Under the pieces are notes generated by a model. The model worked only from the letters and a program-made list of their open reading frames with translations, was not told the DNA's origin and searched no databases. This document shows, one piece after another, positions 47,123-63,608 of a DNA stretch of 64,000 nucleotides (position 1 is the first letter of the stretch; each line of letters begins with the position of its first letter). The position numbers were made by a program, and so were the translations under genes. The stretch comes from Planctomycetaceae bacterium (lineage in GTDB: Bacteria; Planctomycetota; Phycisphaerae; Phycisphaerales; UBA5793): the NCBI GenBank assembly GCA_040255465.1, contig JBDZVA010000002.1, positions 932,375 to 996,374 of the forward strand. Direction: 5' to 3'.

Positions 47123-49324
47123 ATGACTACGCCGCCTGACAATTCGAGCAGTGCGAGGGCCGCCCCATCATGCGCTCACTGCAGTCTGCCTGTGGCGCCC
47201 ACGCTGCTTCGTCGTGTTCACGATGCCGCGCGCAACAACGAACCGCTGTTCTGCTGCGGCGGCTGTCGGCTTGTCCACTCACTTCTCGCCACTCGTCAGG
47301 CAGATCACACCATCAGTTCGGCCATGCTCCGCATCGGCCTGGGCATCTTCTTCAGCATGAACCTGATGGTCTTTTCCTTTTGCTTTTACGGAGCTGATAC
47401 GCTTGTCCCGCCGGGGGGCGCGACGTCCGCCGACATGGCGCTCGCCAATCTGTTCCGCTGGCTGCTGCTCCTGCTCGCGTCCGGTGTCATGCTCACGCTT
47501 TGGACGCAAATCGCGCGTGGCGCCTGGGATGATCTGCGCCGCGGCCGACTGCAGGCCGGAGTACTGATTGCGACCGGAGCACTCGCCGCGTTCATCGTCA
47601 GCGCCATTTCGGTCCTGCGAGGCGAGGGCCCCCTCTACTTCGACTCCGCCTCGATGATTCTGCTGCTTGTGACCATCGGCCAGTATCTTGAAGCCAAGAT
47701 GAAGACCGCGGCGGTCCGCAGCGCGGAAGGCCGACTGCTCAGCCTTCCGGACGAGGTTACGATTGAGTCGGCAGTTGGCGATCAGACCGTCAATGTATCG
47801 GAGGTGCAGACGGGTCAGACCGCGCGCGTTGCAGCCGGAAGTGCGATCCCCATCGATGGGGCGATCGTGCGCGGCCACGCCACCATCGATGTCTCACTGC
47901 TCACCGGTGAATCTGAGCCGCGACAGTGCGGCCCCGGGGCCAACGTGTGGGCCGGCTCACACGTGCTCGACGGCGTCATCTGGATTCGCGCAACATCGAC
48001 GTCTTCGGAGCGCCGCATCGAGACCATCGTGCGACAACTTCACGCCCTGCGCAACGAGCCGACACACATTCAACGCCTCACGGACCGCATCGCCGCTGTC
48101 TTCATACCCGCAACCATCGTGCTTTCGCTCGCCGTCTTTGCATACCAGGCGATCGTGTACGGCGCCGCCATGGAAGGTGTCATGCGCGCGCTGGCCGTCG
48201 CCCTCATCGCCTGCCCGTGCGCGCTGGGCCTGACGGCGCCCCTCGTTGTCTCGCGCGTTGCGTCATCGCTCGCGCGGCACGGCATCATTGTCCGCAGTGG
48301 ACGCGCACTCGAACTCGCAGCGTCGGTCCGCCACATCTTTTTCGACAAGACCGGCACGCTCACGACCGGCGACTTCCGCGTGCAGCGCACCATCCGCATC
48401 GATCCGTGCTGCGATCCTGATCCGATAGCCGCAGCACTCGAGCAAGCCTCGAATCACCCCATCGCGCGGGCCTGGTCCAAGGTGGCGTCCGCTTCACTGC
48501 CCTCGGTTTCGGATCTCGAACCCATCATTGGCCTCGGCGTTCGCGGCTTCATTGACGGCCAGAGGTACTTCATCGGCCGCGCCAGCGTAACCTCCGCGGT
48601 GCGAACCACATCCCTGCAACCGCCGATCGAACTGGCGGACCTGCTCCCCATAATGCTCACGCGCGACGATCAACTTGTTGCCTGGTTCGGCCTCACTGAA
48701 TCAATCCGCCCGGAGTCCACTGTCGTATTACGTGATCTGCACTCCATGCACATTCGCGCCGAAGTCCTGACCGGCGACGTGTCGCAGCGTGCGGTTCAGC
48801 TCGGTGAGGCGCTCGGCGTGCAGGTTCACAGTGCCCAGACGCCCGAGTCGAAGCGCACAATGATCCGGCAGCGTCGCGACGAGTCCAACACCCCGGTAGC
48901 ATTCGTAGGCGATGGCATCAATGACGCGCTCGCTCTGGCCGAAGCCGATCTCGGCATCACCGTCGCTGGCGGCAGCGATCTCGCCCACGCTTCCGGACAG
49001 GTCAGTCTGCTCGATGGTGATCTGCATCGACTCGTTCACCTGCTGCAGGCAGCCCGCATCGCGCAACGCCGCATCGCGCTTGCGCTGGGTTGGTCGTTCG
49101 GCTACAACGCTGTGGGACTTACGCTTGCAACGCTGGGCATGCTCACGCCCGCCTTTGCCGCAATCGCGATGGTACTGTCCAGCGCGGTCACCATCATCAT
49201 TGCTTCGCGCCCCGTTTCTACTGGCTCGCTTGAAACCGCAGATCCCACCCGTTCTCCACTTGCGCTCTCACGTCGGGCCCCATCGTCCAGAGGTCTTCCC
49301 GTTCCCGCGGCTCCCCCGGCATGA
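47123..49324 (+). CDS. ccoI: Copper-translocating P1B-type ATPase (CcoI/FixI-like)
   Basis: ATG at 47123 inside ORF 46694..49324. N-terminal CAHC and FCCGGC metal sites, a CPC TM motif (IACPCALGL), DKTGTLT and GDGINDA. Confidence 0.8.
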   Translation: MTTPPDNSSSARAAPSCAHCSLPVAPTLLRRVHDAARNNEPLFCCGGCRLVHSLLATRQADHTISSAMLRIGLGIFFSMNLMVFSFCFYGADTLVPPGGATSADMALANLFRWLLLLLASGVMLTLWTQIARGAWDDLRRGRLQAGVLIATGALAAFIVSAISVLRGEGPLYFDSASMILLLVTIGQYLEAKMKTAAVRSAEGRLLSLPDEVTIESAVGDQTVNVSEVQTGQTARVAAGSAIPIDGAIVRGHATIDVSLLTGESEPRQCGPGANVWAGSHVLDGVIWIRATSTSSERRIETIVRQLHALRNEPTHIQRLTDRIAAVFIPATIVLSLAVFAYQAIVYGAAMEGVMRALAVALIACPCALGLTAPLVVSRVASSLARHGIIVRSGRALELAASVRHIFFDKTGTLTTGDFRVQRTIRIDPCCDPDPIAAALEQASNHPIARAWSKVASASLPSVSDLEPIIGLGVRGFIDGQRYFIGRASVTSAVRTTSLQPPIELADLLPIMLTRDDQLVAWFGLTESIRPESTVVLRDLHSMHIRAEVLTGDVSQRAVQLGEALGVQVHSAQTPESKRTMIRQRRDESNTPVAFVGDGINDALALAEADLGITVAGGSDLAHASGQVSLLDGDLHRLVHLLQAARIAQRRIALALGWSFGYNAVGLTLATLGMLTPAFAAIAMVLSSAVTIIIASRPVSTGSLETADPTRSPLALSRRAPSSRGLPVPAAPPA

Positions 49325-50124
49325 CGCTCCTACTGACCTATCTCGGGTTCTTCCTCGCGGGCCTGGCGGGAAGCCTGCACTGCATTGGCATGTGTGGCCC
49401 CATTCTTACCGCCATCGCCGGCGTCGATCGCCGCGCTGAGGTAACCCTCAACGGCCAATCCGTGTCCCAGCGTGCAAACAGAGCCGCTCGCGACCTGCTG
49501 TGGTATCATGCCGGCCGCATCAGCACCTACGCCATGCTCGGCGCGCTGGCAGGTGCTTTGGGTGCGACGATCCGCGAAGCGATTTGGCTTGGGCAACTTC
49601 AGGGTTGGCTGGGCTTCGCGACAGGACTCATCGCCTTCTTCGTCGCCGGCATCCTGCTCCTCAGACCAGTCACGAGTTGTTCAAACGCGCTCGAGCTGAC
49701 ACCTCGCAATCGCTCTCTTGCCGGCACCTTTGCACTTCTTCGCTCGCTCGCTCAGCAGAAATCGCCATCATCGCGATTCCTTCTCGGCGCGATCATGGGC
49801 TTCATACCCTGCGGCCTCGTCTACATCATGCTCGCTGCGGTCGCCGCAACCGGTCATCCGCTCGCCGCTTCGCTCGGCATGATTGCCTTCGGCCTCGGCA
49901 CACTCCCCGCGCTGACCGGCGTCATCCTCGCCGTGCGACTGGTCCCAATTCGATGGCGCAAGCACGGCAACCGCGCCGCCATGCTCATGGCTCTTGTTGT
50001 CGGTTCGATGTTCTTGTGGAGGTCGTGGCCTACTCACGCCCATGGTGCCGCAGCGCTCGATCAGCACAACTGTCCGCTGTGCAATGACGCTGCATCGGAA
50101 CCATCGAACCACACACGCCCGTGA
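49321..50124 (+). CDS. TauE/SafE- or DsbD_2-like membrane protein coupled to ccoI
   Basis: ATGA overlap with ccoI. Six or so TM helices and an N-terminal GSLHCIGMCGP motif. Confidence 0.65.
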   Translation: MTLLLTYLGFFLAGLAGSLHCIGMCGPILTAIAGVDRRAEVTLNGQSVSQRANRAARDLLWYHAGRISTYAMLGALAGALGATIREAIWLGQLQGWLGFATGLIAFFVAGILLLRPVTSCSNALELTPRNRSLAGTFALLRSLAQQKSPSSRFLLGAIMGFIPCGLVYIMLAAVAATGHPLAASLGMIAFGLGTLPALTGVILAVRLVPIRWRKHGNRAAMLMALVVGSMFLWRSWPTHAHGAAALDQHNCPLCNDAASEPSNHTRP

Positions 50125-50446
50125 CGGGCCGCCTCCGTTCCGCGCCCACTAGAGCATCAACGAAGCAGGCGCAATCCGTGATCTCTGCGTATCGCGCCAC
50201 CCCAAGCGATCGGTCACGCGCACTCCGTGTTGGCACCGCTGCTGGGGATCGCACTTGCGCGCCAATGGCGTCAATTTTCACCACTTGCTTCAACGACCGG
50301 GGCAGTTTCCCTCATCTCGATTGCTCCATGCATGTTTTTATTGACCACATTTGGTTTATCAGTTAGGTTGAAGTGACGGCGCAGCGAATCGAGCGAGCAC
50401 GCTTGAGGCTGATCGACCGACACACATCCTTCACAAGGAGATGGGA

Positions 50447-51364
50447 ATGACTTCTACACGACTCCGTAGCCACTTTTGTCTGTTCTGCCTGCTTCTTTTC
50501 GCCGTTGTGGCAACACCGGCCATGGCCTTTCCGGATCTGGCAACCGGTACCAATGGCGACTGCTTCGCCTGCCACACCACCATTCAAACCGGCCGCATGG
50601 AACTGCTTGATTTTGCGGGCATGATTGACCCCGTCGAAATGCAGGGCGTACCCGATCAGGGTTCGCTCAAGTACTACTCCGTCGCGCCGGGCGGCAGTGT
50701 GGGCATGACGATTCACGCGATCAACGGGGCCAACCAATACGCCTTCCAGGTCACTGGCTTTGACGCACCCGACGTCACCGGCGGTGGCACACTCACCTAC
50801 ACCGATGATCCCGCATGGCTCGCATACCGCGGGAACTTCAAGACCTACTTCTGCCGTGCCGACGGCGGTCGGAACGGCTACGACTGGGGAACCGGGGATC
50901 CCACGACCGTCACGTACAACATCCAAGTCGATCAGTCAACCCCGCCCGGATACTACCTGCTTCGGTATGCGCTGGCGGGCAAGGGTGGCGGCGAGTGGTA
51001 TCAGGATGAGCTGTTCTACCTCGAAGTCACCGGTGGTTCGGGCGGACCGGTGCTCACGGTCAACGCGACCTGCCCAAGCGGCGGGCCGATCATGATCTCG
51101 TGGTCCGGCGCGACGCCGCGCTCCACCATCGCGCTCATCTACGCGCGGAACACCGGCAGCTTCCGGATCCCGTCCAACTACGCCTGCGCCGGCACCGTCC
51201 TGGGACTCGGCTCCAACCAGGTCCAACTGGCCTACCAGGGGGCATCCGGCACCAATGGCAGCAAGACACTGAATTCGAACGCCGGGCCCGGAGTCTGCGG
51301 AGGCTACTTCCAGTTGCTCGACGTCGCCACCTGCTCGACGAGTAATGTCGTTCAGGCCCAGTGA
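50447..51364 (+). CDS. Secreted CxxCH protein, paralog 1, with 4-Cys C-terminal module
   Basis: ATG at 50447 lies 6 nt after AAGGAG. Signal peptide ...VVATPAMA, then NGDCFACHTT about 10 residues after the predicted cleavage site. C-terminal LTVNATCPSGG...CAGT...CGGYFQLL...CSTSN. Confidence 0.7.
   Translation: MTSTRLRSHFCLFCLLLFAVVATPAMAFPDLATGTNGDCFACHTTIQTGRMELLDFAGMIDPVEMQGVPDQGSLKYYSVAPGGSVGMTIHAINGANQYAFQVTGFDAPDVTGGGTLTYTDDPAWLAYRGNFKTYFCRADGGRNGYDWGTGDPTTVTYNIQVDQSTPPGYYLLRYALAGKGGGEWYQDELFYLEVTGGSGGPVLTVNATCPSGGPIMISWSGATPRSTIALIYARNTGSFRIPSNYACAGTVLGLGSNQVQLAYQGASGTNGSKTLNSNAGPGVCGGYFQLLDVATCSTSNVVQAQ
51011..51324 (+). repeat. 314-bp perfect direct repeat, copy 1
   Basis: I read nt 51011-51324 as identical to 52196-52509 (offset 1185). 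The first mismatch is at 51325 (C) versus 52510 (T). Confidence 0.85.
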
Positions 51365-51422
51365 TCGCGCTCCGTTTGCCGCTGCCCAATTCGGCTCCGG
51401 TAATTCAGGCTCTCATTGACTC

Positions 51423-51459
51423 GTCGCGGCGCTCGCCCTGAGCGCCGCGACTCTTTTTT
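51423..51459 (+). terminator. Rho-independent terminator
   Basis: 12-bp perfect stem GTCGCGGCGCTC / GAGCGCCGCGAC with loop GCCCT, followed by TCTTTTTT. Confidence 0.8.
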
Positions 51460-51625
51460 CACTCATCCGCGCCGCTCAAGCTACCGCGATTTCTTCTCCT
51501 TCTTGACGGGATCATGCAAGATTTTTCGGCCCGGCTCGCGATTGTGAGGTACTCTTCAATACCGGTGCCGCACACGCGGATGGACCGTCTGCTGTAGTAC
51601 CGACTCGATGCACCAGGAGAGAGAC

Positions 51626-52549
51626 ATGCCCCCCTCGCGATTTTCTATCGGACTCATCGCCGTCGCCCTGTTCGTCCTCGGGACGCTCGCAGGCCGAGCG
51701 GTCGCCTATCCCGCATTCGGGGAGGGCGTGGACGGCAACTGCTTCGTCTGCCACTCGACCATCGTCGACAACCGGATGGAGCTGCTCGATTTTGCCGGCA
51801 TGATCGACCCCGTCGAGATGCAGGGCGTTCCGGACCAGGGCTCGCTCAAGTACTACTCAGCGCCGGCAGGCGGCAACGTCGGTATGAGCATGCGCGCCAT
51901 CGACGGCACCGAGAACTATGCCTTCCAGATCATCGGGTTCAGCGAGCCCGACGTGACACAGGGCGGCACGCTCCTCTATTCTGCCGACCCCACGTGGTTG
52001 TCCTTTCAAGGCCCCACGCAGACCTATTTCGTTCGTGCCGACGGCGAGTTCGATGGCTACGACTGGCTCACCAACGATCCCACTGAGGTTACGTACGACA
52101 TCCACGTCGATGCCTCAACACCCCCCGGCTACTACCTGCTCCAGTTCGCGCTTGTCGGGCGCGATGTCCAGCGCGATGGCTGGTACCACAGCGAACTGTT
52201 CTACCTCGAAGTCACCGGTGGTTCGGGCGGACCGGTGCTCACGGTCAACGCGACCTGCCCAAGCGGCGGGCCGATCATGATCTCGTGGTCCGGCGCGACG
52301 CCGCGCTCCACCATCGCGCTCATCTACGCGCGGAACACCGGCAGCTTCCGGATCCCGTCCAACTACGCCTGCGCCGGCACCGTCCTGGGACTCGGCTCCA
52401 ACCAGGTCCAACTGGCCTACCAGGGGGCATCCGGCACCAATGGCAGCAAGACACTGAATTCGAACGCCGGGCCCGGAGTCTGCGGAGGCTACTTCCAGTT
52501 GCTCGACGTTGCCACCTGCTCGACGAGCAACGTCGTTCGAGCGGAGTAA
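51626..52549 (+). CDS. Secreted CxxCH protein, paralog 2, with 4-Cys C-terminal module
   Basis: ATG at 51626 in ORF 51608..52549. Signal peptide ...LAGRAVA, then DGNCFVCHST at the same position as in paralog 1. The C-terminal ~105 aa are identical to paralog 1. Confidence 0.7.
   Translation: MPPSRFSIGLIAVALFVLGTLAGRAVAYPAFGEGVDGNCFVCHSTIVDNRMELLDFAGMIDPVEMQGVPDQGSLKYYSAPAGGNVGMSMRAIDGTENYAFQIIGFSEPDVTQGGTLLYSADPTWLSFQGPTQTYFVRADGEFDGYDWLTNDPTEVTYDIHVDASTPPGYYLLQFALVGRDVQRDGWYHSELFYLEVTGGSGGPVLTVNATCPSGGPIMISWSGATPRSTIALIYARNTGSFRIPSNYACAGTVLGLGSNQVQLAYQGASGTNGSKTLNSNAGPGVCGGYFQLLDVATCSTSNVVRAE
52196..52509 (+). repeat. 314-bp perfect direct repeat, copy 2
   Basis: See copy 1 (51011-51324). 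Confidence 0.85.
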
Positions 52550-52585
52550 CGCATGACAGAGCACAAAACTCTTCATTTTTTGGTC

Positions 52586-52622
52586 CATCGCGGCACTCCA
52601 GCGAGTGCCGCGATGTCGTTTT
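52586..52622 (+). terminator. Rho-independent terminator
   Basis: 13-bp perfect stem CATCGCGGCACTC / GAGTGCCGCGATG with loop CAGC, followed by TCGTTTT. Confidence 0.75.
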
Positions 52623-52737
52623 GACCCGCCGCGACTAGAGGCGATTGCCTAATGACTCCCCGCGCTGGTGTCCCCTGAGCAGTGGCGACATATCCTTCTT
52701 TTCACACATCGAAACCCCAAGCACGGAGCAATGCACC

Positions 52738-53208
52738 ATGGCACTCAAAGTTGGCGACAAGGCTGTTGCAGTGAAACTCTCTCCCGAACCCAAGCAGTGG
52801 ATCGACCTTGGCGATCAGATCGGCAAGGACAAGATCGTCCTGCTCTTCTTCCCGCTCGCATTCTCGGGCGTATGCACCAAAGAACTCTGCACGATGCGCG
52901 ACGATTGGTCCAAGTGGAGCGGTTTGGGTGCGAAGGTCTATGGCGTCAGCGTCGACAGCCCGTTTGTGAACGTGAAGTTCGCCAAGGAAAACAACCTCCC
53001 CTTCCCGCTACTCTCCGACTTCAACCGCGAAGCCAGTAAGGCGTACGGCGTGCTCATGGAAGATCTCATCGGCCTCAAGAACGTGTCGATGCGCAGCGCC
53101 TTCGTGATCGATCGCCAGGGCAAGATTGCGTACTCGTGGGTCGCGGAAAACCCGGGCGTCGAGCCAGATTACGCAGCGGTGCGGAAGGCCGTGCAAGGCG
53201 CGGCGTAA
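52738..53208 (+). CDS. Peroxiredoxin (AhpE/Bcp-like, AhpC/TSA family)
   Basis: ATG at 52738 in ORF 52645..53208. LLFFPLAFSGVCTKELC peroxidatic Cys motif and VYGVSVDSPF. Confidence 0.8.
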   Translation: MALKVGDKAVAVKLSPEPKQWIDLGDQIGKDKIVLLFFPLAFSGVCTKELCTMRDDWSKWSGLGAKVYGVSVDSPFVNVKFAKENNLPFPLLSDFNREASKAYGVLMEDLIGLKNVSMRSAFVIDRQGKIAYSWVAENPGVEPDYAAVRKAVQGAA

Positions 53209-53428
53209 GACAGCTGCAAGCGAAAGAGAATTGACTTGACGCATCGTCCCCCAGTCCAGCCCGGGGGGCGGTGTTTTTCACGTTGCACGCGACGAACCTT
53301 TCGACCGGTGCGTCCGCGTGCGAGGCCGTCCCCGGCCCTGCGGAGAGTTGAATCGCGCGATGCGCAGAGATCTGTGTCATCTTTTGGCGGCTGCCGGCAG
53401 TGGGAAGCGCGCCAGCGTGGACTGATGC

Positions 53429-53941
53429 TTGAGAGTCCGGTGGCGGTGTTTATGCTTGCTCGTGCCAACGTCTTCCAATCAGTCTGGCTCGCGGGACAAC
53501 GAACGGCTCGAAGCGGGGTCGACCTGCGCAAAGTGCGGGTGCAATCTTGCCAGCCGGGCGCCGCATGGGCAATGTCCGGAGTGCGGAACCACCTACGAGC
53601 GATGGACGGTGGCGCGGCGGGGGCCGGTGTCGGCGCTGGGGCTGCTCGTGCGGTTTGGGTGGCCGTTCATGGTGTTTGCTGTCGTCATGTACGCCGTCAA
53701 TGGCGGCATAGCGATCCCCAGTGGGCTGGGTAGACTAAGCGGATGGATTGCCGTGGCATCCGGTGCGGCGCTGTTCATCAACATCCCCGTGCAGTTCATT
53801 TGGTTGCATTACAGGGGGGCGCCGTACTTCATTGACGTTTCGCCCGGCCGGGTTGTGTGGCGGTTCGTCATCTGCATCGTGCTGTTGTTCTTGTTACTGC
53901 CATTCCTGCTTCTGGGAGCGTGCCTGCTTCTGGTGCTCTGA
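53429..53941 (+). CDS. Zinc-ribbon membrane protein, paralog 1 (N-terminal CxxC...CPEC, three TM helices)
   Basis: CAKCGCNLASRAPHGQCPECGTTY followed by LLVRFGWPFMVFAVV and two further helices. Start uncertain (TTG at 53429). Confidence 0.6.
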   Translation: MRVRWRCLCLLVPTSSNQSGSRDNERLEAGSTCAKCGCNLASRAPHGQCPECGTTYERWTVARRGPVSALGLLVRFGWPFMVFAVVMYAVNGGIAIPSGLGRLSGWIAVASGAALFINIPVQFIWLHYRGAPYFIDVSPGRVVWRFVICIVLLFLLLPFLLLGACLLLVL

Positions 53942-54024
53942 GGGACTCGTCGGCGGTCCGCTCATCTGCCTGATCAGGAGCAAAGCTCGTTCCGGGAAGC
54001 AGGCGGGAGAACTTCGCGGTATGC

Positions 54025-54498
54025 TTGTGCGTGGAAACGACTCCTGGACAGACTGCGGCCACGGCGAGGCTCGGCGAGCAGGCGTATTGCGTGAAGTGCG
54101 GATATCAGCTCTCGGGACTTTCAGCGAGCGGAGCGTGCCCGGAGTGCGGCAACGCCTATCAACCTACAACCGTGGCTCGCGAGCCGGCGCCGATGACGAT
54201 GAATCTACTGCTGCGGTTCGGCTGGCCAATGGTGGCGTACCTGCTGTTCACGGTAGTGCCGATGACCGGCGCGGGTGATGGCAATTTCGTCCTGCCGTTG
54301 TCGCTGGTGCTGCTTGCGGCTTCGTTCCTGGCGTGCATCGTCAATGTGCCGATTCAGTTTCGGCTGCTGAGAGGCCGCTCCGTTGGACCGCGCGCCGATC
54401 AGGTGCGCCGCTTAATGGTGACGCTCGCAGTGCTGTCTATTCTCTGGCCGTTTCTCATCTTCGGCGGCTGCCTGGCTGTGGTGGCGACGCTGGCGTGA
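54025..54498 (+). CDS. Zinc-ribbon membrane protein, paralog 2
   Basis: CVKCGYQLSGLSASGACPECGNAY followed by LLLRFGWPMVAYLLF and two further helices. Collinear with the 53429 product. Confidence 0.6.
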   Translation: MCVETTPGQTAATARLGEQAYCVKCGYQLSGLSASGACPECGNAYQPTTVAREPAPMTMNLLLRFGWPMVAYLLFTVVPMTGAGDGNFVLPLSLVLLAASFLACIVNVPIQFRLLRGRSVGPRADQVRRLMVTLAVLSILWPFLIFGGCLAVVATLA

Positions 54499-55910
54499 GC
54501 GTGCCGCTTTCCATCCTGAATGCACCGTCACCGCTCAAGGTCACGCGGAGCCGATGTCCGGTGTGCCTCGACGAGATTGACGCGGAAATCTTCACGCGGG
54601 GCAACAGGGTCTACATGAGCAAGCGATGTATTGCGCACGGCGCGTTTGAGACGCTGTTGGCGCGGGATGCGAGGTTCTACTATGAATCGAAGGGCGCCGG
54701 GTCGTGCGGGGCAGGTTGTGGGTGCGCCGCGGGAAGCGACGGCGGCCACGGCTTCGGATTGCGCGGGGACGATGGAGGCGTCGACGTAGACCCCTTTGAC
54801 GTGCTTTCGACGTGCGTGGCGCTCATAGAGATTGTGGATTCGTGCAACCTGACCTGCCCGACGTGTTTTGCGGCATCGCCCTTCGGAGTCGATGAGCGTG
54901 TCGAGTGCCTGCCGTTCGATGAGTTCGTCAGGTGCGTCGAGAAGGTGTTGACGCGCAAGGGGTATGTCGACATTTTGCAACTGTCAGGCGGGGAACCGAC
55001 GATTCACCCGGAGTTCTTCAAGTTGCTCGAGTGGTCGCTCAAGCAAAGCACAATCGGCTACGTGCTCATCAACACCAATGGCGTGCGGGTGGCGCGCGAT
55101 GCAGCGTTTCGGGAAGAGTTGGGGCGAGTGCGGCGGAAGCACAAGAAGTTCGAGTTGTATCTGCAGTTTGACGGGCCGCAGGAGGCGGGGCAGTTTGAAT
55201 TGCGCGGAGCGAATCTGCGGGCGCTGCGCGAACAGGCGATCGACCTGGCTGGTGGGGCAGGCATACCAACGACGCTGGGGATGGTCGTGACAGAGCAGAC
55301 GCGCGCGGCGCTGGGTGATGCGTTGCGATTCGGACTGGAGCGGCCGCACTGTCGAGGCTTGACGCTGCAGCCGATGTTCGGCTCCGGGCGCGTGCCCGAG
55401 GTGCAGACGTCTCTGCCGATGGCGCGGGAAATGCGCGAGCCGATCTCGGTTGGTGATGTGATTGCCGATCTGGTGGCGCAGAGTGACGGGCAGTTGGCGT
55501 TCGAGGACTTCACCCCTCTGCCGTGCGGCGATCCGAACTGCCACACGATGAGTTACCTCATTCGTAGCGAGAACGGGTCCACCGGCTTGAGCCGGCTGAT
55601 CGACTTGAGGTCGCTACAGGGATTCCTCGCGAACCGACTCGACTATCGGCTGGAGGATCTGGCGCAATGCGGCTGCGAGAGTGAGCCACTTGGCGCGGTG
55701 CTCAAGGAGTTGGAGATCGGACCCGATCAGCCGTTTCGGATCTTCATCAAGCCGTTTATGGACGCGTGGACATTCGACCAGGACCGGATCGATCGGTGTT
55801 GCACCCACGTCATCCGGCGCGACGGAACGCTGGACTCGTTCTGCCGGTACTACCTGAACGGCGGCCGCGCGGGTGAGATAGCGCGGGCATCTCAGAGCGC
55901 TGCGCGATGA
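54495..55910 (+). CDS. Radical SAM enzyme of the MJ0619 / Tes (GDGT-MAS)-like family
   Basis: GTG at 54495 (GTGA overlap with the upstream stop) in ORF 54333..55910. N-terminal CPVCLDEIDAEIFTRGNRVYMSKRCIAHG, radical SAM CNLTCPTC (CxxxCxxC), SGGEPT. C-terminal FIKPFMDAWTFDQDRIDRCCTHVIRRDGTLDSFCRYY, resembling the MJ0619-type C-terminus. Confidence 0.65.
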   Translation: MSVPLSILNAPSPLKVTRSRCPVCLDEIDAEIFTRGNRVYMSKRCIAHGAFETLLARDARFYYESKGAGSCGAGCGCAAGSDGGHGFGLRGDDGGVDVDPFDVLSTCVALIEIVDSCNLTCPTCFAASPFGVDERVECLPFDEFVRCVEKVLTRKGYVDILQLSGGEPTIHPEFFKLLEWSLKQSTIGYVLINTNGVRVARDAAFREELGRVRRKHKKFELYLQFDGPQEAGQFELRGANLRALREQAIDLAGGAGIPTTLGMVVTEQTRAALGDALRFGLERPHCRGLTLQPMFGSGRVPEVQTSLPMAREMREPISVGDVIADLVAQSDGQLAFEDFTPLPCGDPNCHTMSYLIRSENGSTGLSRLIDLRSLQGFLANRLDYRLEDLAQCGCESEPLGAVLKELEIGPDQPFRIFIKPFMDAWTFDQDRIDRCCTHVIRRDGTLDSFCRYYLNGGRAGEIARASQSAAR

Positions 55911-56641
55911 CTCTAGGCAGCGCGTATAGCGTGCTGATGATTACGGGGATTGTTCTGGGCGCGTGGCTGTGGAGTCGCATCACGGGACAGCAGACGCGGC
56001 GTGATCCGCGGTTGACGATCATCTACCTCTCGGCACTCGTCGGCGCCATCGTCGGCACCAAGGTCGCGTTTCTGCTGGCCGAGGGCTGGCACTATCGCGA
56101 TAACTGGGTTGCGCTGCTGACGGGACGGAGCATCACGGGCGGACTGCTCGGCGGATACGCCGCGGTCGAGATTGCGAAGTGGCGTACGGGCTATAGGCAG
56201 GCAACCGGTGATGCGTTTGCACTGATTGTGCCGACCGGGTTGGTGCTCGGGCGCGTGGGCTGCTGGATCCAGGGGTGCTGCCAGGGGGCGCTGTGCGCTG
56301 AGCACTGGTGGTCGCTCAATGACAGCGTGGGGGCAGGTCGGTGGCCGATTGTGCCGCTGGAGATCGGGTTCAACGCGGCGTTTCTCATTTGGGCGCTGGC
56401 CGCGCGACGGTTGGGGTGGGTGCGCGGCAACCAGTTTCACGTGTATCTCATCGCGTACGGCGTCTTTCGATTCGTCGAAGAGTTTGCGCGCGACACAGCG
56501 AGGATTGATGGAACATCCTTCAGCGGATACCAGGTGATCGCGCTGGCAACCATAGTGTTCGGAGCAGAGCGGTTTGTGGGGCGCAGGTTTGTGGGGCGCA
56601 CTAAGCAGGCGCTTCGTGAAGAAGCGCCTGCGATGAAGTAA
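55907..56641 (+). CDS. lgt: Prolipoprotein diacylglyceryl transferase (Lgt) family protein
   Basis: ATGA overlap with the radical SAM gene. Polytopic membrane protein with GGLLGGYAAVEIAKW and LGRVGCWIQGCCQG (an Lgt GRxGC..GCC.G-type block). Confidence 0.6.
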   Translation: MTLGSAYSVLMITGIVLGAWLWSRITGQQTRRDPRLTIIYLSALVGAIVGTKVAFLLAEGWHYRDNWVALLTGRSITGGLLGGYAAVEIAKWRTGYRQATGDAFALIVPTGLVLGRVGCWIQGCCQGALCAEHWWSLNDSVGAGRWPIVPLEIGFNAAFLIWALAARRLGWVRGNQFHVYLIAYGVFRFVEEFARDTARIDGTSFSGYQVIALATIVFGAERFVGRRFVGRTKQALREEAPAMK

Positions 56642-58030: not shown

Positions 58031-59266
58031 ATGATTCCACTCAGCACCGATAGACCGACACGCCGCACGCCGGCTGTGAATGTGACGATCATCGTGATCA
58101 ACGTGCTTGTGGCGCTGGTGGTGGCGGCGTCAGAGCCCGTGCGGATGTGGACCCAGCAGCACCTGTACCTGTGGCCCGACTGGACACTCCTTCGAATGCC
58201 GGATGACTCGGTCGTCGAGTACGGCCCGCATCTCTGGCAGTTCATTACATACCAGTTCCTGCACGAGCCCAGCAGCCTGAGCCACATTGGGTTCAACATG
58301 CTCTTTCTGTGGGTGTTCGGCAATGCGATCGAGGACAAGATCGGCCATGCGGGGTACCTCTGCTTTTACCTCGCGGGCGGTGTTTTCGCCGGTCTGGGGC
58401 ACTGCCTGACCTCGGACAACCCAGTGCTGGGCGCGAGCGGGTCCGTGTCGGCGGTGACGGGGCTGTTCCTGGCGTTGTTTCCGCAGACGCGGATCAAGGT
58501 GCTTTGGCTGTTCTTCCTCATCTCGGTCTTCGAGATCCCGAGTCTGTGGTTCATCGGCTTCAGCATCGGCATGGACCTTTTCGGCGCTCTGAGGGGCGGC
58601 GGAGGCGTGGCGTACTTCGCCCATATCGGGGGCAACCTGTTTGGCTTCCTGCTGGGCATGTCGCTGCTGTGGACCCGACTGGTGCCGCGCGATCCCTATG
58701 ACCTGCTGAGCATGATTAACCAGTGGAACCGAAGGCGACAGTTTCGGTCGATCACGGATCGCGGCTATGACCCCTGGGCCGGACGGCGCGCCGGCAGCAA
58801 AGGCGCGTTCAAGGAGACGAAGCCGAACTTCAAGAAGGAGAAGCCCGCGGGGGCAAAGGCGAAGGACGATCCGGACGGTCGGGCCCAACTGGAGGCACGT
58901 CAGCAGGTTGCCAACCTCGTCATCGCGACGAAACTGAAGGAAGCGGCGGTCGAGTATGCCAAGGCAACGCAGCGCTGGCCGGACTTCGTGCTGGGCGCAC
59001 CGGCGCAACTCGATCTGGCGAACTATCTGTTCAGCGAGCACCAGTACGAGCGGGCTGTGGCGGCCTACCAGGCGCTGCTCAAGCACTACCCCACGAGCGA
59101 CCCGACTGGACGGCTGCGTTTGCTAATCGGCTTGGCGCTGGCGCGCTATCTCGGGCGGCCGGGCGAGGCTTCCGAGCCGCTGCGCATCGCGGCTGAGCGG
59201 CTGGGCTCGGGACCCGATCGCGATCTGGCGCATGAAATTCTTGCCGAGGTGAGCGGGTCCGCATAA
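58031..59266 (+). CDS. Rhomboid-family intramembrane serine protease with C-terminal TPR-like domain
   Basis: HIGFNMLFLWVFG, catalytic GASGSV and AHIGGNLFG. The C-terminal ~130 aa are helical and TPR-like (YERAVAAYQALLKHYP). Confidence 0.8.
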   Translation: MIPLSTDRPTRRTPAVNVTIIVINVLVALVVAASEPVRMWTQQHLYLWPDWTLLRMPDDSVVEYGPHLWQFITYQFLHEPSSLSHIGFNMLFLWVFGNAIEDKIGHAGYLCFYLAGGVFAGLGHCLTSDNPVLGASGSVSAVTGLFLALFPQTRIKVLWLFFLISVFEIPSLWFIGFSIGMDLFGALRGGGGVAYFAHIGGNLFGFLLGMSLLWTRLVPRDPYDLLSMINQWNRRRQFRSITDRGYDPWAGRRAGSKGAFKETKPNFKKEKPAGAKAKDDPDGRAQLEARQQVANLVIATKLKEAAVEYAKATQRWPDFVLGAPAQLDLANYLFSEHQYERAVAAYQALLKHYPTSDPTGRLRLLIGLALARYLGRPGEASEPLRIAAERLGSGPDRDLAHEILAEVSGSA

Positions 59267-62083: not shown

Positions 62084-63226
62084 ATGTCGACGCCATTCCT
62101 GCTTGCCGGATATCCGGACCGCTTCCCGGGGGTCTACCACCGCATCCGCTTTCTGTGCGGCGATATGACCGTCTTTCTCGATCTGGGTGGCGGCCAGACA
62201 CATCTGATCGTGCGCAACATCGAGCTGCCTCGGGCGAAGAAAGCCGGCACGGCCCAGCACATCTGGTGTCCCGAAGACCTGCCGCCAACCGGCGGGCTGA
62301 GTAGCGATCGTGACACGTCGTATGCCCAGGCGACGGCGGAGCTGCTGGTGCGCGAGGGGGTGAAAGAGATTGCTGGCGATTATCTTTTGCCGCTGCTCTT
62401 CGTCGATGTGCTGCGCGAGCGTGGGATCAAAGTGGTTTTCGATCCCGATCTCGGACGCGTCGACCGGCGGATGAAGGACGACTGGGAGGTGGAGCAGCTG
62501 CGCGACTCGCAACAGCACACCGAAGCGGCAATCCGGTTTGCCTATGACACCATCGCGCGGGCCAACGTCGTCGATGGCATGCTGCACCACGATGGAGCCG
62601 CGCTAACGGCCGACGGGCTTCGGTCGATGATCGTCATCTTCCTGCTCAAACGAGGCCTGTCGAATCCGAACGACTGCATCGTCGCGCCGGGCAAGGTCGG
62701 TTCGGACTGCCACCATCGTGGCGAAGGAGTGCTGCGGATCAACGAACCGATCATCCTTGACGTGTTCCCGCTCAACACCAAGACCCGCTACTGGGGAGAC
62801 TGCACGCGAACGCTGTGTCGCGGCACGCCGCATCCGACGCTGTCGATGATGCATGCGCATGTGGTGGAAGCGAAAGCGGCAGCGATCAAGGCGTGTCGGG
62901 CCGGGGCAGCGGGAGCACAGGTGCACCAGGCGGTGCTCGACGTGTTCAATCGCGAAAAGTACCACATCGGCATGCCGCCCGACGATGCGCCGGATGATCT
63001 CATCTTCTACCCGCACGGCACGGGTCACGGCATCGGCCTCGAATGCCACGAGCCGCCCATTCTCGATTTACTGTGCGGCACGCTGGTCAATGGCGACGCC
63101 CTGACGATCGAGCCGGGGCTGTACTGCAAGGCTGTAGGCGGCGTGCGCGTTGAAGACATGGTGATCGCCCGGGCGGACGGATGCGAGAATCTGAATGAAC
63201 TGCCGGAGGGGTTATGGTGGGATTGA
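62084..63226 (+). CDS. M24-family metallopeptidase (Xaa-Pro aminopeptidase/creatinase-like)
   Basis: Pita-bread fold metal ligands: ILDVFP...YWGDCTRT, HGTGHGIGLECHEPP, TIEPGLY and GGVRVEDM. Confidence 0.85.
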   Translation: MSTPFLLAGYPDRFPGVYHRIRFLCGDMTVFLDLGGGQTHLIVRNIELPRAKKAGTAQHIWCPEDLPPTGGLSSDRDTSYAQATAELLVREGVKEIAGDYLLPLLFVDVLRERGIKVVFDPDLGRVDRRMKDDWEVEQLRDSQQHTEAAIRFAYDTIARANVVDGMLHHDGAALTADGLRSMIVIFLLKRGLSNPNDCIVAPGKVGSDCHHRGEGVLRINEPIILDVFPLNTKTRYWGDCTRTLCRGTPHPTLSMMHAHVVEAKAAAIKACRAGAAGAQVHQAVLDVFNREKYHIGMPPDDAPDDLIFYPHGTGHGIGLECHEPPILDLLCGTLVNGDALTIEPGLYCKAVGGVRVEDMVIARADGCENLNELPEGLWWD

Positions 63227-63269
63227 TTCCGCGGACTCCGATTCAGGTCGGGTTCAGGAGAAATGCACC

Positions 63270-63608
63270 ATGCGCAACTGGAGAATCGCTCTCTGCTTAC
63301 TACTGCTTTGCGTTGGTGCTATCGCGATTTTGTACTCGGCAAATATGACCGCATATTCGGTGTGGTTGAGTGCGCACCCTCAATTCGATGATGAACTTTG
63401 GGCGGCACGAGCAATCGCGTGGCTCGTTGCAACCCTCGGGATCATGGTTGTCGAAATGGCGGGTTTTTGGTTGTTCATCAAGAGACAACATCGATGGCGT
63501 AGTTCATCAGTTGGCAACCACTGTCCCGATTGCGGATACGACCTTCGTGAGAGTGTGTCGCGTTGTCCGGAATGCGGACACGAGGCAAACGTCAACGGGA
63601 GTGAATAG
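63270..63608 (+). CDS. Membrane protein with C-terminal zinc ribbon (CPDCGY...CPECG)
   Basis: ATG at 63270 in ORF 63195..63608. Two TM helices, then CPDCGYDLRESVSRCPECGHE at the C-terminus. Confidence 0.6.
   Translation: MRNWRIALCLLLLCVGAIAILYSANMTAYSVWLSAHPQFDDELWAARAIAWLVATLGIMVVEMAGFWLFIKRQHRWRSSSVGNHCPDCGYDLRESVSRCPECGHEANVNGSE

Follow-up and report, generated by a model that had tools for sequence, protein, structure and literature searches.

The DNA analysed here, referred to as the window, is a 64-kb stretch of the Planctomycetaceae bacterium contig JBDZVA010000002.1, and all coordinates below are positions within it. Between 53429 and 56641 lie four co-directional ORFs, which, like all the features described within them, are on the + strand: ORF1 (53429–53941) and ORF2 (54025–54498), which encode small membrane proteins, a radical SAM gene (54495–55910, GTG start, 471 aa) and a gene for an Lgt-family membrane protein (55907–56641, ATG start, 244 aa). 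At 54495 the letters GTGA hold both the GTG of the radical SAM gene and the TGA with which ORF2 stops, and at 55907 ATGA likewise joins the ATG of the Lgt-like gene to the TGA that closes the radical SAM gene, such that the ORF coordinates and the start and stop letters bear out the coupled, head-to-tail arrangement proposed in the initial annotation of this DNA. Since other genomes contain homologues of all four, arranged in the same way, the ORFs are evidently genuine genes and not chance reading frames. Automated gene calls start ORF1 at 53609 and ORF2 at 54193, thereby cutting off an N-terminal zinc ribbon in each case. The longer ORFs are the better models because the ribbon is conserved in frame in all 10 of 10 aligned relatives, where its motif reads CxxCGYxLxGL...G.CPECG. 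The start of ORF1 is not fixed, the candidates being TTG 53429 (giving 170 aa), TTG 53456 and GTG 53462.

ORF1 and ORF2 are paralogues, as had been supposed (blastp E about 1e-15), and in each an N-terminal CxxC...CPxC knuckle is followed by about three hydrophobic segments. The Cys4 knuckle of ORF1 is zinc-ribbon or rubredoxin-like (C33-x2-C36 ... C49-x2-C52, 53525–53584), while that of the 157-aa ORF2 (C22, C25, C38 and C41) matches rubredoxin-like models weakly. Homologues of ORF1 adjoin the radical SAM gene in loci L003–L012, L016 and L022, and the ribbon is lineage-specific, being absent outside Phycisphaerales-type loci. At their other ends, both proteins carry a lipobox-like motif just before the stop codon. 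The C-terminus of ORF1 reads ...LLLPFLLLGAC-LLLVL, in which L-L-G-A-C165 is followed by a 5-residue tail (53909–53938), and that of ORF2 reads ...WPFLIFGGC-LAVVATLA, in which F-G-G-C149 is followed by an 8-residue tail (54460–54495). The Phe at position −3 in ORF2 is a departure from the classical lipobox, and a positively charged loop precedes the last helix of this protein.

The radical SAM protein contains all three motif blocks that had been claimed for it, SRCPVCLDEIDAEIFTRGNRVYMSKRCIAHG, CNLTCPTC and FIKPFMDAWTFDQDRIDRCCTHVIRRDGTLDSFCRYY, and its domains are those of Pfam PF23545 and PF04055. It matches the GDGT-MAS structure 7TOL over all domains in sequence comparison (E 2.5e-30), and its predicted fold does likewise (Foldseek E 2.3e-27, TM-score 0.68). 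In other words, the protein is, on homology, a full-length relative of GDGT-MAS/Tes (MJ0619, PDB 7TOL/7TOM; MA_1486) and belongs to the MJ0619/Tes/TrsS superfamily. It shares the four-domain architecture of GDGT-MAS, namely a rubredoxin-like CX2CX20CX2H site (C21-x2-C24-x20-C45-x2-H48, 54555–54638; C9X2C12X20C33X2H36 in GDGT-MAS, PMC9433317), a Cys-rich N-terminal segment, a CX3CX2C radical SAM core (C117-x3-C121-x2-C124, the CNLTCPTC motif, 54843–54866) and a C-terminal Cys-rich block (FIKPFMD...RIDRCCTHV...FCRYY, 55743–55853), which in alignment matches the C-terminal cluster domain of GDGT-MAS. The initial assignment to the MJ0619/Tes family thus stands at the level of the superfamily but not of Tes orthology, which is rejected: the score of 147 bits lies below the NCBIfam cut-off of 450, and Met439 and Tyr459, reported to be fully conserved in 1000 archaeal GDGT-MAS homologues (PMC9433317), are replaced by K419 and V439, respectively. 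The N-terminal cluster motif is CX3CXC and not CX3CX2C. The best curated family is instead that of the TrsS radical SAM (seleno)protein (NCBIfam NF045646, 208 bits), as it also is for members of the linked family from Bacteroidota and Acidobacteriota (319–332 bits, near full length), although all of these scores fall under the 490-bit cut-off. TrsS was reportedly described by Haft and Tolstoy in 2025, and no function for it was found in the literature searched. The enzyme has no transmembrane segment and no SPASM or peptide-recognition domain.

The assignment of the fourth gene to the Lgt family is upheld by a Pfam LGT match of 80.6 bits, by a profile of the Lgt-like family that matches E. coli Lgt (PDB 5AZB) with E 5e-16, and by an AlphaFold2 model (pLDDT 92.7) for which Lgt is the only significant PDB match, the fold being predicted to be common to both. 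In E. coli numbering, the protein keeps Y26, D129, R143, G154, Y235, R239, E243 and R246, the last four corresponding to Y184, R188, E192 and R195 here (56456–56491). It is nevertheless shorter than E. coli Lgt, aligning without the long segment after G154, and its signature is altered to G115-R116-V-G-C119-x4-C124-C125-x-G127-x2-C130 (56249–56296), such that N146 and E151 are both Cys. Transferase activity is not assured, since Thr replaces H103 and Cys replaces N146, both of which E. coli Lgt cannot do without. Variants with N146C are, however, already known among distant Lgt proteins, and the Leptospira enzyme carries this change yet partly complements E. coli (PMC13251419); the Leptospira interrogans protein and M. 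smegmatis MSMEG_5408 are the second-copy or N146C-type Lgt proteins that invite comparison. Across the 66 enzyme-linked Lgt-like relatives, D129 and R143 are kept in every case, R239 and E243 (the latter as E or D) in 64 each and Y235 in 63, and the N146 position is Cys in all 66. Judged by these residues, the protein looks competent. A different reading of the same pattern is that the Lgt-like protein assembles with the small proteins into a membrane complex of structural or regulatory function, in which C119 and the tail Cys make intermolecular disulfides or bind metal and no lipid is transferred. In this regard, no Cys other than C119 is shared by all 66 proteins, which excludes a universal internal disulfide, and the loss of two essential Lgt residues would be accommodated. 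Such a complex is nonetheless improbable, since it is hard to explain why a non-enzyme should keep R143, R239, Y235, D129 and E243 in 63–66 of 66 cases, and structural subunits do not usually come in one to four divergent copies in tandem.

In 65 of 83 non-redundant loci the Lgt-like gene neighbours the radical SAM gene and has the same orientation, and in 45 of these the two are no more than 150 nt apart. Seven of the other loci are cut by contig ends, and in 11 of the 83 there is none within 5 kb of the radical SAM gene. The linked loci come from Planctomycetota, Verrucomicrobiota, Bacteroidota, Betaproteobacteria, Acidobacteriota and others, the adjacency being kept in at least eight phyla with differing flanks. 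In the Planctomycetota/Verrucomicrobiota clade the radical SAM gene comes first and the Lgt-like gene follows it, whereas the order is inverted in the clade of Bacteroidota, Betaproteobacteria and Acidobacteriota. Reverse look-ups from three Lgt-like proteins also reach the neighbourhood of the radical SAM gene, and on a single contig a 671-aa ORF fuses the two proteins. In Chondrinema litorale, according to the RefSeq annotation, a plasmid carries all three genes of the module, by which we mean the two enzyme genes together with the small-protein genes described below. Conserved and functional linkage of the two enzyme genes is therefore supported, in line with the gene-neighbourhood check that had been suggested. 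The window holds no second lgt, as might be expected if an ordinary housekeeping lgt simply followed an unrelated radical SAM gene, but such a chance neighbourhood is highly improbable and already contradicted by the conserved linkage, with its inverted order, its fusion ORF and its plasmid-borne copy; moreover, the Lgt-like protein falls below every NCBIfam Lgt equivalog cut-off. The bacterial enzyme also differs from archaeal GDGT-MAS/Tes in having this Lgt-like partner and, often, Cys-tailed small proteins. No description of the gene combination was found in the literature searched, and it does appear, as had been thought, to be undescribed.

Genes for the small membrane proteins that adjoin the module number one to four in tandem, and the proteins of different phyla have little in common except a final helix with a Cys tail. 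This tail carries a lipobox-like G-[GA]-C, 4–17 residues before the stop (G-[IFL]-C-G in Bacteroidota), always near the outer end of a predicted in-to-out helix and downstream of basic residues, and the residues after the Cys are hypervariable. The tails of Bacteroidota and Betaproteobacteria depart from the classical lipobox in having I, F or L at position −1. Within the same loci, a helix followed by [GAS]-C and 4–17 residues to the stop is found in 56 of 1422 ORFs adjoining the module and in 3 of 8731 elsewhere (odds ratio 119, about 120-fold; p 1e-44); when only ORFs with hydrophobic tails are considered, the motif is present in 49 of 81 adjoining the module against 4 of 67 elsewhere. In the Bacteroidota small-protein family, few positions reach 80% conservation, the C-G of the tail being among them. 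Among the loci examined, most Pirellulales-type loci, Chloracidobacterium and Vicinamibacteria have no clear small-protein partner. By their sequence features, then, ORF1 and ORF2 are the local form of a third module component, the Cys-tailed small membrane proteins; they are paralogues upstream of the enzyme gene, as first described, but not mere paralogues, and are likely substrates.

Our tentative reading, to which we give somewhat less than even credence, is that the operon is the Phycisphaerales form of an apparently undescribed three-component membrane module of many bacterial phyla, in which the Lgt paralogue lipidates the small proteins, with remodelling of the lipid being the task of the radical SAM enzyme. 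The initial interpretation, a membrane-lipid or lipoprotein-modifying pathway, is to this extent supported in its family assignments and linkage but not in Tes orthology or in the role given to the small proteins. The latter are probably the substrates of the Lgt paralogue: the last helix of ORF1 and ORF2 is predicted to run from the cytoplasm to the outside and ends in P-x-L-x-[FL]-G-[GA]-C, with only 5–8 residues to follow. The Cys-type paralogue, in which the residues required by E. coli Lgt to bind phosphatidylglycerol are retained, would move a diacylglyceryl group onto the tail Cys via a thioether at the outer leaflet. In other words, Lgt chemistry would here act on a C-terminal signal, the gene being linked both to that of a radical SAM enzyme and to those of proteins with a lipobox-like Cys in a C-terminal helix and not in an N-terminal signal peptide, as for Lgt itself. 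The soluble radical SAM enzyme may dock on the cytoplasmic side of the Lgt-like protein, as the one natural fusion suggests, and the zinc ribbon of ORF1 and ORF2 would be a cytoplasmic addition peculiar to the lineage, perhaps for docking or as a redox module. Direct radical SAM action on the tail Cys is topologically awkward, because the enzyme is cytoplasmic and the Cys is predicted at the outer leaflet; lipid tails alone could plausibly be shared between the two. By analogy with Tes, the radical step might then abstract hydrogen from a lipid tail, either of the phosphatidylglycerol donor before transfer or of the attached anchor after it, with tail-to-tail C-C coupling or macrocyclisation as example chemistries. 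The result could be a small lipoprotein with a special anchor, or a membrane-spanning lipid linked to a protein. Mss, the membrane-spanning lipid synthase of Thermotoga and Thermoanaerobacter, is likened to the enzyme by described function and not by sequence; as a radical SAM enzyme with demonstrated coupling of bacterial fatty-acid tails, it sets a functional precedent for Tes-like chemistry on bacterial lipids, with no Lgt-like or small-protein partner mentioned in the descriptions consulted.

Closer to the initial view is a bulk-lipid pathway, in which the radical SAM protein would be a bacterial synthase of tetraether or membrane-spanning lipids with ordinary phospholipids as its substrates, the Lgt-like protein would only extract or present phosphatidylglycerol, and the small proteins would be tethers, regulators or, via the Cys4 knuckle, electron donors. 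Homology to GDGT-MAS covers the entire enzyme, and GDGT-MAS binds an archaeal phosphatidylglycerol analogue (PMC9433317). Tes homologues of bacteria, Phycisphaerae included, have been proposed as branched-tetraether (brGDGT) enzymes, the weak rubredoxin-like match of the ORF2 knuckle would suit an electron donor, and in one related locus a fatty-acid hydroxylase family gene, together with a methyltransferase gene, sits next to the pair; this locus and the likeness of the enzyme to GDGT-MAS count for the preferred reading as well. We regard this reading as serious but unlikely. It leaves unexplained why the G-C tail is the sole feature common to unrelated small proteins, why these occur in tandem and why the same tails follow Lgt-like proteins that, on their short contigs, have no radical SAM gene nearby; the zinc ribbon, moreover, is missing outside Phycisphaerales-type loci, and the Tes-conserved Met439 and Tyr459 are absent. 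Membrane-spanning lipids are not known from most carriers of the module, such as Flavobacteriia, Sphingobacterium, Massilia and Akkermansiaceae.

RiPP clusters, too, typically combine a radical SAM enzyme with tandem, fast-evolving genes of the precursor type, and the hypervariable tails past the Cys would fit a lipopeptide pathway of this kind. The small proteins would then be precursors, cut by a peptidase next to the lipidated Cys to give either a short lipidated C-terminal peptide (Cys plus 4–17 residues) or a protein ending in lipid-Cys, which the radical SAM enzyme would modify further. This is quite improbable, given that no protease gene is conserved in the loci examined (the rhomboid gene in the window is missing from three relatives with annotated neighbourhoods) and that the enzyme, lacking SPASM, resembles a lipid enzyme and not a peptide maturase. 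For both this pathway and the preferred lipidation of the small proteins, a parallel may be drawn with eukaryotic CAAX processing, that is, thioether lipidation near the C-terminus, tail removal and methylation, in which enzymes of the ICMT family methylate a C-terminal lipidated Cys once the tail is removed. The putative lipidated Cys of the module likewise lies few residues from the C-terminus. The parallel is one of analogy, the enzymes being unrelated, the lipid a putative diacylglycerol and not prenyl, the Cys lying within a transmembrane helix and no protease having been identified in the loci. A sister group of more distant Cys-type Lgt-like proteins nonetheless adjoins PEMT/ICMT-family methyltransferase genes, in loci L093 and L094; at L095, which encodes a further distant Cys-type protein, no radical SAM gene was called on the short contig. 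In all three, which serve as independent contexts in support of the preferred reading, the Lgt-like protein again precedes one or two small Cys-tailed proteins, whose ends read ...LLLFGAC..., ...LIQAC..., ...LLVFGGC... and ...LLVFGAC....

Four open reading frames, all on the plus strand, occupy positions 53429-56641 of the window: two small membrane proteins that are paralogues of each other, ORF1 (53429-53941) and ORF2 (54025-54498), a radical SAM enzyme (54495-55910) and a protein resembling Lgt, the prolipoprotein diacylglyceryl transferase (55907-56641). The 3' end of ORF2 reads ...CTG GCG TGA, with the GTG start of the radical SAM gene inside it at 54495, and the radical SAM gene itself ends in ...CGA TGA, with the ATG of the Lgt-like gene at 55907. 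The head-to-tail operon with GTGA and ATGA overlaps described in the initial annotation is correct. The operon is flanked by a peroxiredoxin gene on the upstream side and, on the downstream side, by a citrate synthase gene in convergent orientation; scans of the region for promoters and terminators gave match counts no higher than those of shuffled controls. The top homologues come from MAGs named as Phycisphaerales or Planctomycetota, which places the window in a member of that group. In the databases, ORF1 and ORF2 are called from starts at 53609 and 54193 (products of 110 and 101 amino acids); since both automated starts lie 3' of the conserved zinc ribbons, the N-terminal domains are missing from the database proteins.

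The association of the two enzyme genes extends well beyond this operon. A scan for relatives of the radical SAM enzyme, taking one genome per species, returned 80 loci, and the radical SAM loci come from Planctomycetota (of both Phycisphaerae and Pirellulales types), Verrucomicrobiota, Bacteroidota, Betaproteobacteria, Acidobacteriota, Bdellovibrionota, Sumerlaeota and Blackallbacteria. Across 83 non-redundant loci, 65 contain an Lgt-like gene on the same strand, less than 150 nt away in 45 of them; in seven of the loci without such a gene the sequence ends less than 1.3 kb from the radical SAM gene. In the Planctomycetota/Verrucomicrobiota clade the Lgt-like gene follows the radical SAM gene, and in a clade of about 30% identity it precedes it; the flanking genes vary between loci. 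Reverse look-ups from three Lgt-like proteins arrive next to a radical SAM gene. The gene combination that the initial annotation had picked out is real and widespread. All-against-all clustering of six-frame ORFs, which was swamped by shadow ORFs, yielded no fourth conserved neighbour.

In one metagenomic locus (L088, 2684-4699; protein P0356), a single ORF of 671 amino acids contains an Lgt-like domain followed by a Tes-like radical SAM domain; the gene for a membrane protein of 190 amino acids with a zinc ribbon precedes it. This fusion, known from a single contig in which an assembly frameshift is possible, would put the radical SAM domain at the cytoplasmic C-terminus of the Lgt fold. The full three-gene module is also present, with RefSeq annotation, on a 162-kb plasmid of Chondrinema litorale WSW3-B12, a cultured Cytophagales strain (NZ_CP111057.1, 54932-57252; genes OQ292_RS35420-35430), and its plasmid-borne location suggests that the Lgt-like gene is an accessory copy there. 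No second lgt gene occurs within the 64-kb window. Some 1,300 genomes are reported to have two lgt copies, and the accessible part of that report makes no mention of a radical SAM link. Other cultured carriers of the module include Olleya sp. R77988, Roseibacillus spp. (R. ishigakijimensis KCTC 12986 among them), Novipirellula sp. SH528, Massilia luteola, Sphingobacterium spp. and Aequorivita antarctica. In a further metagenomic locus (L092, 1440-6637), genes for a member of the fatty-acid hydroxylase family (PF04116) and for a UbiE-type methyltransferase come after the radical SAM/Lgt-like pair, on its strand; the small ORF between the pair is devoid of Cys.

The small proteins had initially been regarded as plain paralogous membrane proteins, a description that overlooked what is the most informative feature of the operon, namely a Cys close to the C-terminus. 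Their zinc ribbon is not the conserved feature: it is in Phycisphaerales-type loci alone that zinc-ribbon relatives of ORF1 and ORF2 adjoin the radical SAM gene, a hidden Markov model of these proteins finds only loci of Planctomycetota type, and only the Cys tail recurs elsewhere. A word-based homologue search with ORF2 gave just three matches, because the family evolves too fast for that method. The arrangement of the small proteins is diverse, with four tandem 140-aa copies separating the enzyme genes of an Akkermansiaceae locus, one to three tandem two-helix proteins of 65-75 amino acids downstream in Bacteroidota, and a two-helix protein directly upstream of the Lgt-like gene in Betaproteobacteria. 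Common to them is an outward-running helix that comes after basic residues and has, a few positions short of its outer end, a Cys with small residues before it. This Cys lies in the last helix, with the stop 4-17 residues on, in all but the Betaproteobacteria, whose variants have it in the first helix. The tails, each written up to the stop, read ...LLLGAC-LLLVL in ORF1, ...LIFGGC-LAVVATLA in ORF2, ...SLGICGSMM in Olleya and ...GAGVCGSFF in the RefSeq-annotated, plasmid-borne protein of Chondrinema.

Of 1422 ORFs that adjoin the module, 56 show a helix followed by [GAS]-C and a short tail, as against 3 of the 8731 other ORFs in these loci (odds ratio 119, p 1e-44). Restricting the count to ORFs with hydrophobic tails leaves the motif in 49/81 beside the module as against 4/67 elsewhere, and within the Bacteroidota small-protein family the C-G of the tail is among the few positions at 80% conservation. 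When compared with the lipobox consensus [LVI][ASTVI][GAS]C, the L-G-A-C of ORF1 fits and the F-G-G-C of ORF2 is atypical at position -3. In bacterial lipoproteins the lipobox closes an N-terminal signal peptide, whereas ORF1 and ORF2 have the motif in their final helix, with 5-8 residues left before the stop; the geometry of a bacterial signal peptide, with basic residues and then an in-to-out helix, is nevertheless retained. The predicted place of the motif Cys, at the outer leaflet, agrees with that of the lipobox Cys in a signal peptide. An apparent fusion of a small protein to an Lgt-like protein at one locus (L055, a single open frame of 353 amino acids) was set aside, being a possible open-frame artefact of high GC content with a topology that conflicts with the periplasmic N-terminus of Lgt.

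That the fourth gene encodes a protein with the Lgt fold is clear. It passes the Pfam LGT gathering cut-off (PF01790, 80.6 bits against 24.9), a profile built from 24 relatives matches E. coli Lgt (5AZB) with an E-value of 5e-16, and the AlphaFold2 model (pLDDT 92.7) has 5AZB as its sole significant PDB match (E 1.3e-7, probability 1.00). The protein misses every NCBIfam equivalog cut-off for housekeeping Lgt (TIGR00544 and PRK00052 models), with 50 versus 118.9 bits for TIGR00544 and 58.9 versus 334 for NF000778; linked Lgt-like proteins of other phyla stay below as well. On alignment of 66 Lgt-like proteins that adjoin Tes-like radical SAM genes to E. coli Lgt, whose numbering is used here, the residues kept are D129 (66/66), R143 (66/66), Y235 (63/66), R239 (64/66) and E243 (as E or D, 64/66). 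The N146 position is Cys in all 66 (C119 in the window protein, motif GRVGC), and H103 is not kept. E. coli Lgt has an absolute requirement for Y26, H103, R143, N146, G154 and R239 (PMC13251419); the window protein keeps four of these six, as Y7, R116, G127 and R188 (equivalent to Y26, R143, G154 and R239), and alters two, H103 to Thr77 and N146 to Cys119.

The loss of two essential residues argues against a transferase, and a complex without catalytic function is a rival reading in this regard. On the other side stands the occurrence of N146C in distant Lgt proteins, which include a partly functional Leptospira enzyme and a minor copy in M. smegmatis (PMC13251419). The substitution is not, then, unique to the present proteins; it marks a subfamily and is compatible with transferase activity. 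A role for C119 as one half of a structural disulfide is in general unlikely, since it is the single Cys that is invariant across both clades. A full-library profile search gave 149 clusters at 50% identity, with E-values of up to 1e-30, and the simple pattern GR-x-[GAS]-C is present in 115 of these 149 sequences; 13 full-length sequences without it were inspected, of which nine contain near variants of the pattern and one, at the foot of the ranking, the canonical GRLGN.

The radical SAM enzyme was initially assigned to the family of MJ0619 and Tes (the archaeal tetraether lipid synthase, GDGT-MAS), an assignment that holds at the level of the superfamily. Its Pfam domains are an MJ0619-type zinc ribbon (PF23545, E 4e-17) and Radical_SAM, and the sole solved relative by sequence is GDGT-MAS itself (7TOL; phmmer E 2.5e-30), with an alignment that runs from the ribbon through the core to the C-terminal CC.H...FC block. 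A Foldseek search with the AlphaFold2 model, the mean pLDDT of which is only 69, returns 7TOL and 7TOM (E 2.3e-27, TM-scores 0.68/0.66), the next radical SAM structure being SkfB at 3e-8. The rubredoxin-like site, CX2CX20CX2H at C21, C24, C45 and H48, is invariant in 18 relatives and has exactly the spacing of GDGT-MAS. The candidate N-terminal auxiliary cluster motif, C71-x3-C75-x-C77, is one residue off the spacing of the CX3CX2C plus His of GDGT-MAS and sits in a variable loop modelled with low confidence.

What does not hold is orthology with Tes. The enzyme scores 146.9 bits with the NCBIfam Tes model (NF045702) against a curated equivalog cut-off of 450, and its top-scoring curated family, TrsS (NF045646), is likewise far from reached (208.1 bits, cut-off 490). 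Moreover, Met439 and Tyr459 of GDGT-MAS, which are reported to be completely conserved in 1000 archaeal homologues (PMC9433317), are replaced by K419 and V439, both invariant in the window clade; across loci of the Planctomycetota/Verrucomicrobiota type the two positions are K or T and V, H or I, respectively. In a separate clade comprising Bacteroidota, Betaproteobacteria and Acidobacteriota (L059-L085), the C-terminus reads ...MQFMD...KKSC[VI]H...PF[ED]..., keeping the Met439 equivalent and having Ser and Glu/Asp where the window clade and GDGT-MAS have Cys; the two Lgt-linked clades may therefore not share one form of the C-terminal cluster site. A Mycolicibacterium vanbaalenii plasmid (L089, NZ_CP126902.1) encodes a more remote full-length relative of the radical SAM enzyme (29% identity) beside a methyltransferase gene, with CcdA and disulfide oxidoreductase genes nearby and no Lgt-like gene; this is the context of a different subfamily.

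A lipopeptide or CAAX-like processing pathway is a further rival. Models of SPASM and RiPP maturases (StsB, AlbA and similar) do match the enzyme, weakly and over the radical SAM core only (E 1e-6 or worse). Against a lipopeptide pathway, no SPASM/twitch C-terminal or peptide-recognition domain is found in the enzyme, the C-terminal half of which aligns instead to GDGT-MAS. The protein has no transmembrane segment.

The reading favoured here is that the small proteins would be substrates of a dedicated Lgt paralogue, because they have a lipobox-like motif at a predicted outer-leaflet position, the phosphatidylglycerol-binding residues of the Lgt-like protein are kept, and the multiple copies of the small proteins diverge except in the motif. 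Against it are the -1 position, where 54 distinct tails have G, A or S and those of Bacteroidota and Betaproteobacteria an atypical I, F or L, and the lack of an evident small partner in several clades. Under this reading the Lgt paralogue would lipidate the Cys-tailed proteins, and the radical step on the lipid would fall to the Tes-like enzyme. A further weakness is that this enzyme and the motif Cys are on opposite sides of the membrane, so that only lipid tails could link both. A tail-to-tail C-C coupling by the window enzyme can be hypothesised. Taken in full, the scheme is of a new protein lipidation system, in which the Lgt paralogue places a glycerolipid on the Cys of a C-terminal 'reverse lipobox' and Tes-like C-C joining of the tails leaves the protein on a macrocyclic or membrane-spanning lipid; this is offered tentatively, as a possibility that we hold to be rather doubtful in its entirety. 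On these data the Lgt fold seems to have a second, dedicated use, with C-terminal signals taking the place of N-terminal ones.

Three short contigs lend independent support to the partnership. Distant Cys-type Lgt-like genes adjoin genes for a PEMT/ICMT-family methyltransferase and a DUF4395 protein in two of them (L093, 285-2557; L094, 599-2899), and in the third (L095, 125-1530) the gene call upstream of a Cys-type Lgt-like gene is cut by the contig end. None of the three contigs has a called radical SAM gene. One or two small membrane proteins follow each Lgt-like gene, with ends that read ...LLLFGAC..., ...LIQAC..., ...LLVFGGC... and ...LLVFGAC... plus 6-13 residues. It follows that the Cys-tailed proteins go with the Lgt-like enzyme. 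These loci suggest a sister system that has ICMT-family methyltransferases where the module has its radical SAM enzyme; this may represent a second form of the system, resembling CAAX processing.

Earlier work has drawn attention to bacterial homologues of Tes, those of Phycisphaerae among them, and has put them forward as enzymes of branched-tetraether (brGDGT) synthesis, with their function described as unconfirmed in the accessible parts of that literature. Known since 2022, they serve as candidate markers of brGDGT makers in environmental genomics. A bulk-lipid synthase with accessory proteins is another rival for the present operon. The literature search found no paper that ties bacterial Tes homologues to Lgt or to proteins with a C-terminal lipobox-like motif, and the combination of the three genes is apparently undescribed. 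That a large, multi-phylum group of these homologues is tied to an Lgt paralogue and Cys-tailed proteins alters what such gene counts can mean. Were the full lipidation scheme true, many 'bacterial Tes homologues' counted as brGDGT markers would serve protein lipidation. The three-gene unit is concrete and testable, and cultured carriers of it exist.

Some other features of the surrounding DNA may be recorded. Two genes downstream of the operon, 58031-59266 encodes a fusion of a rhomboid intramembrane protease to TPR repeats; it was considered as a protease of the module and rejected, and is probably unrelated, because it is not beside the module in three relatives with annotated neighbourhoods. 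The tandem paralogous genes at 50441-51364 and 51608-52549, which have no Pfam match and a CxxCH near each N-terminus, lie just downstream of a gene for a DsbD_2 membrane protein of cytochrome c biogenesis type (49321-50124). Their last (3') 300 nt are 98% identical and the remainder about 74%, a pattern that suggests recent gene conversion. The sign of the GC skew switches at about 50000-54000 of the window, with the cumulative minimum near 52 kb, which could be either a gene-strand switch or a replication landmark. Lastly, a small membrane protein at 63195-63605 has a C-terminal CxxCGY..CPECG knuckle resembling that of ORF1 and ORF2, placed after the hydrophobic part rather than before it.
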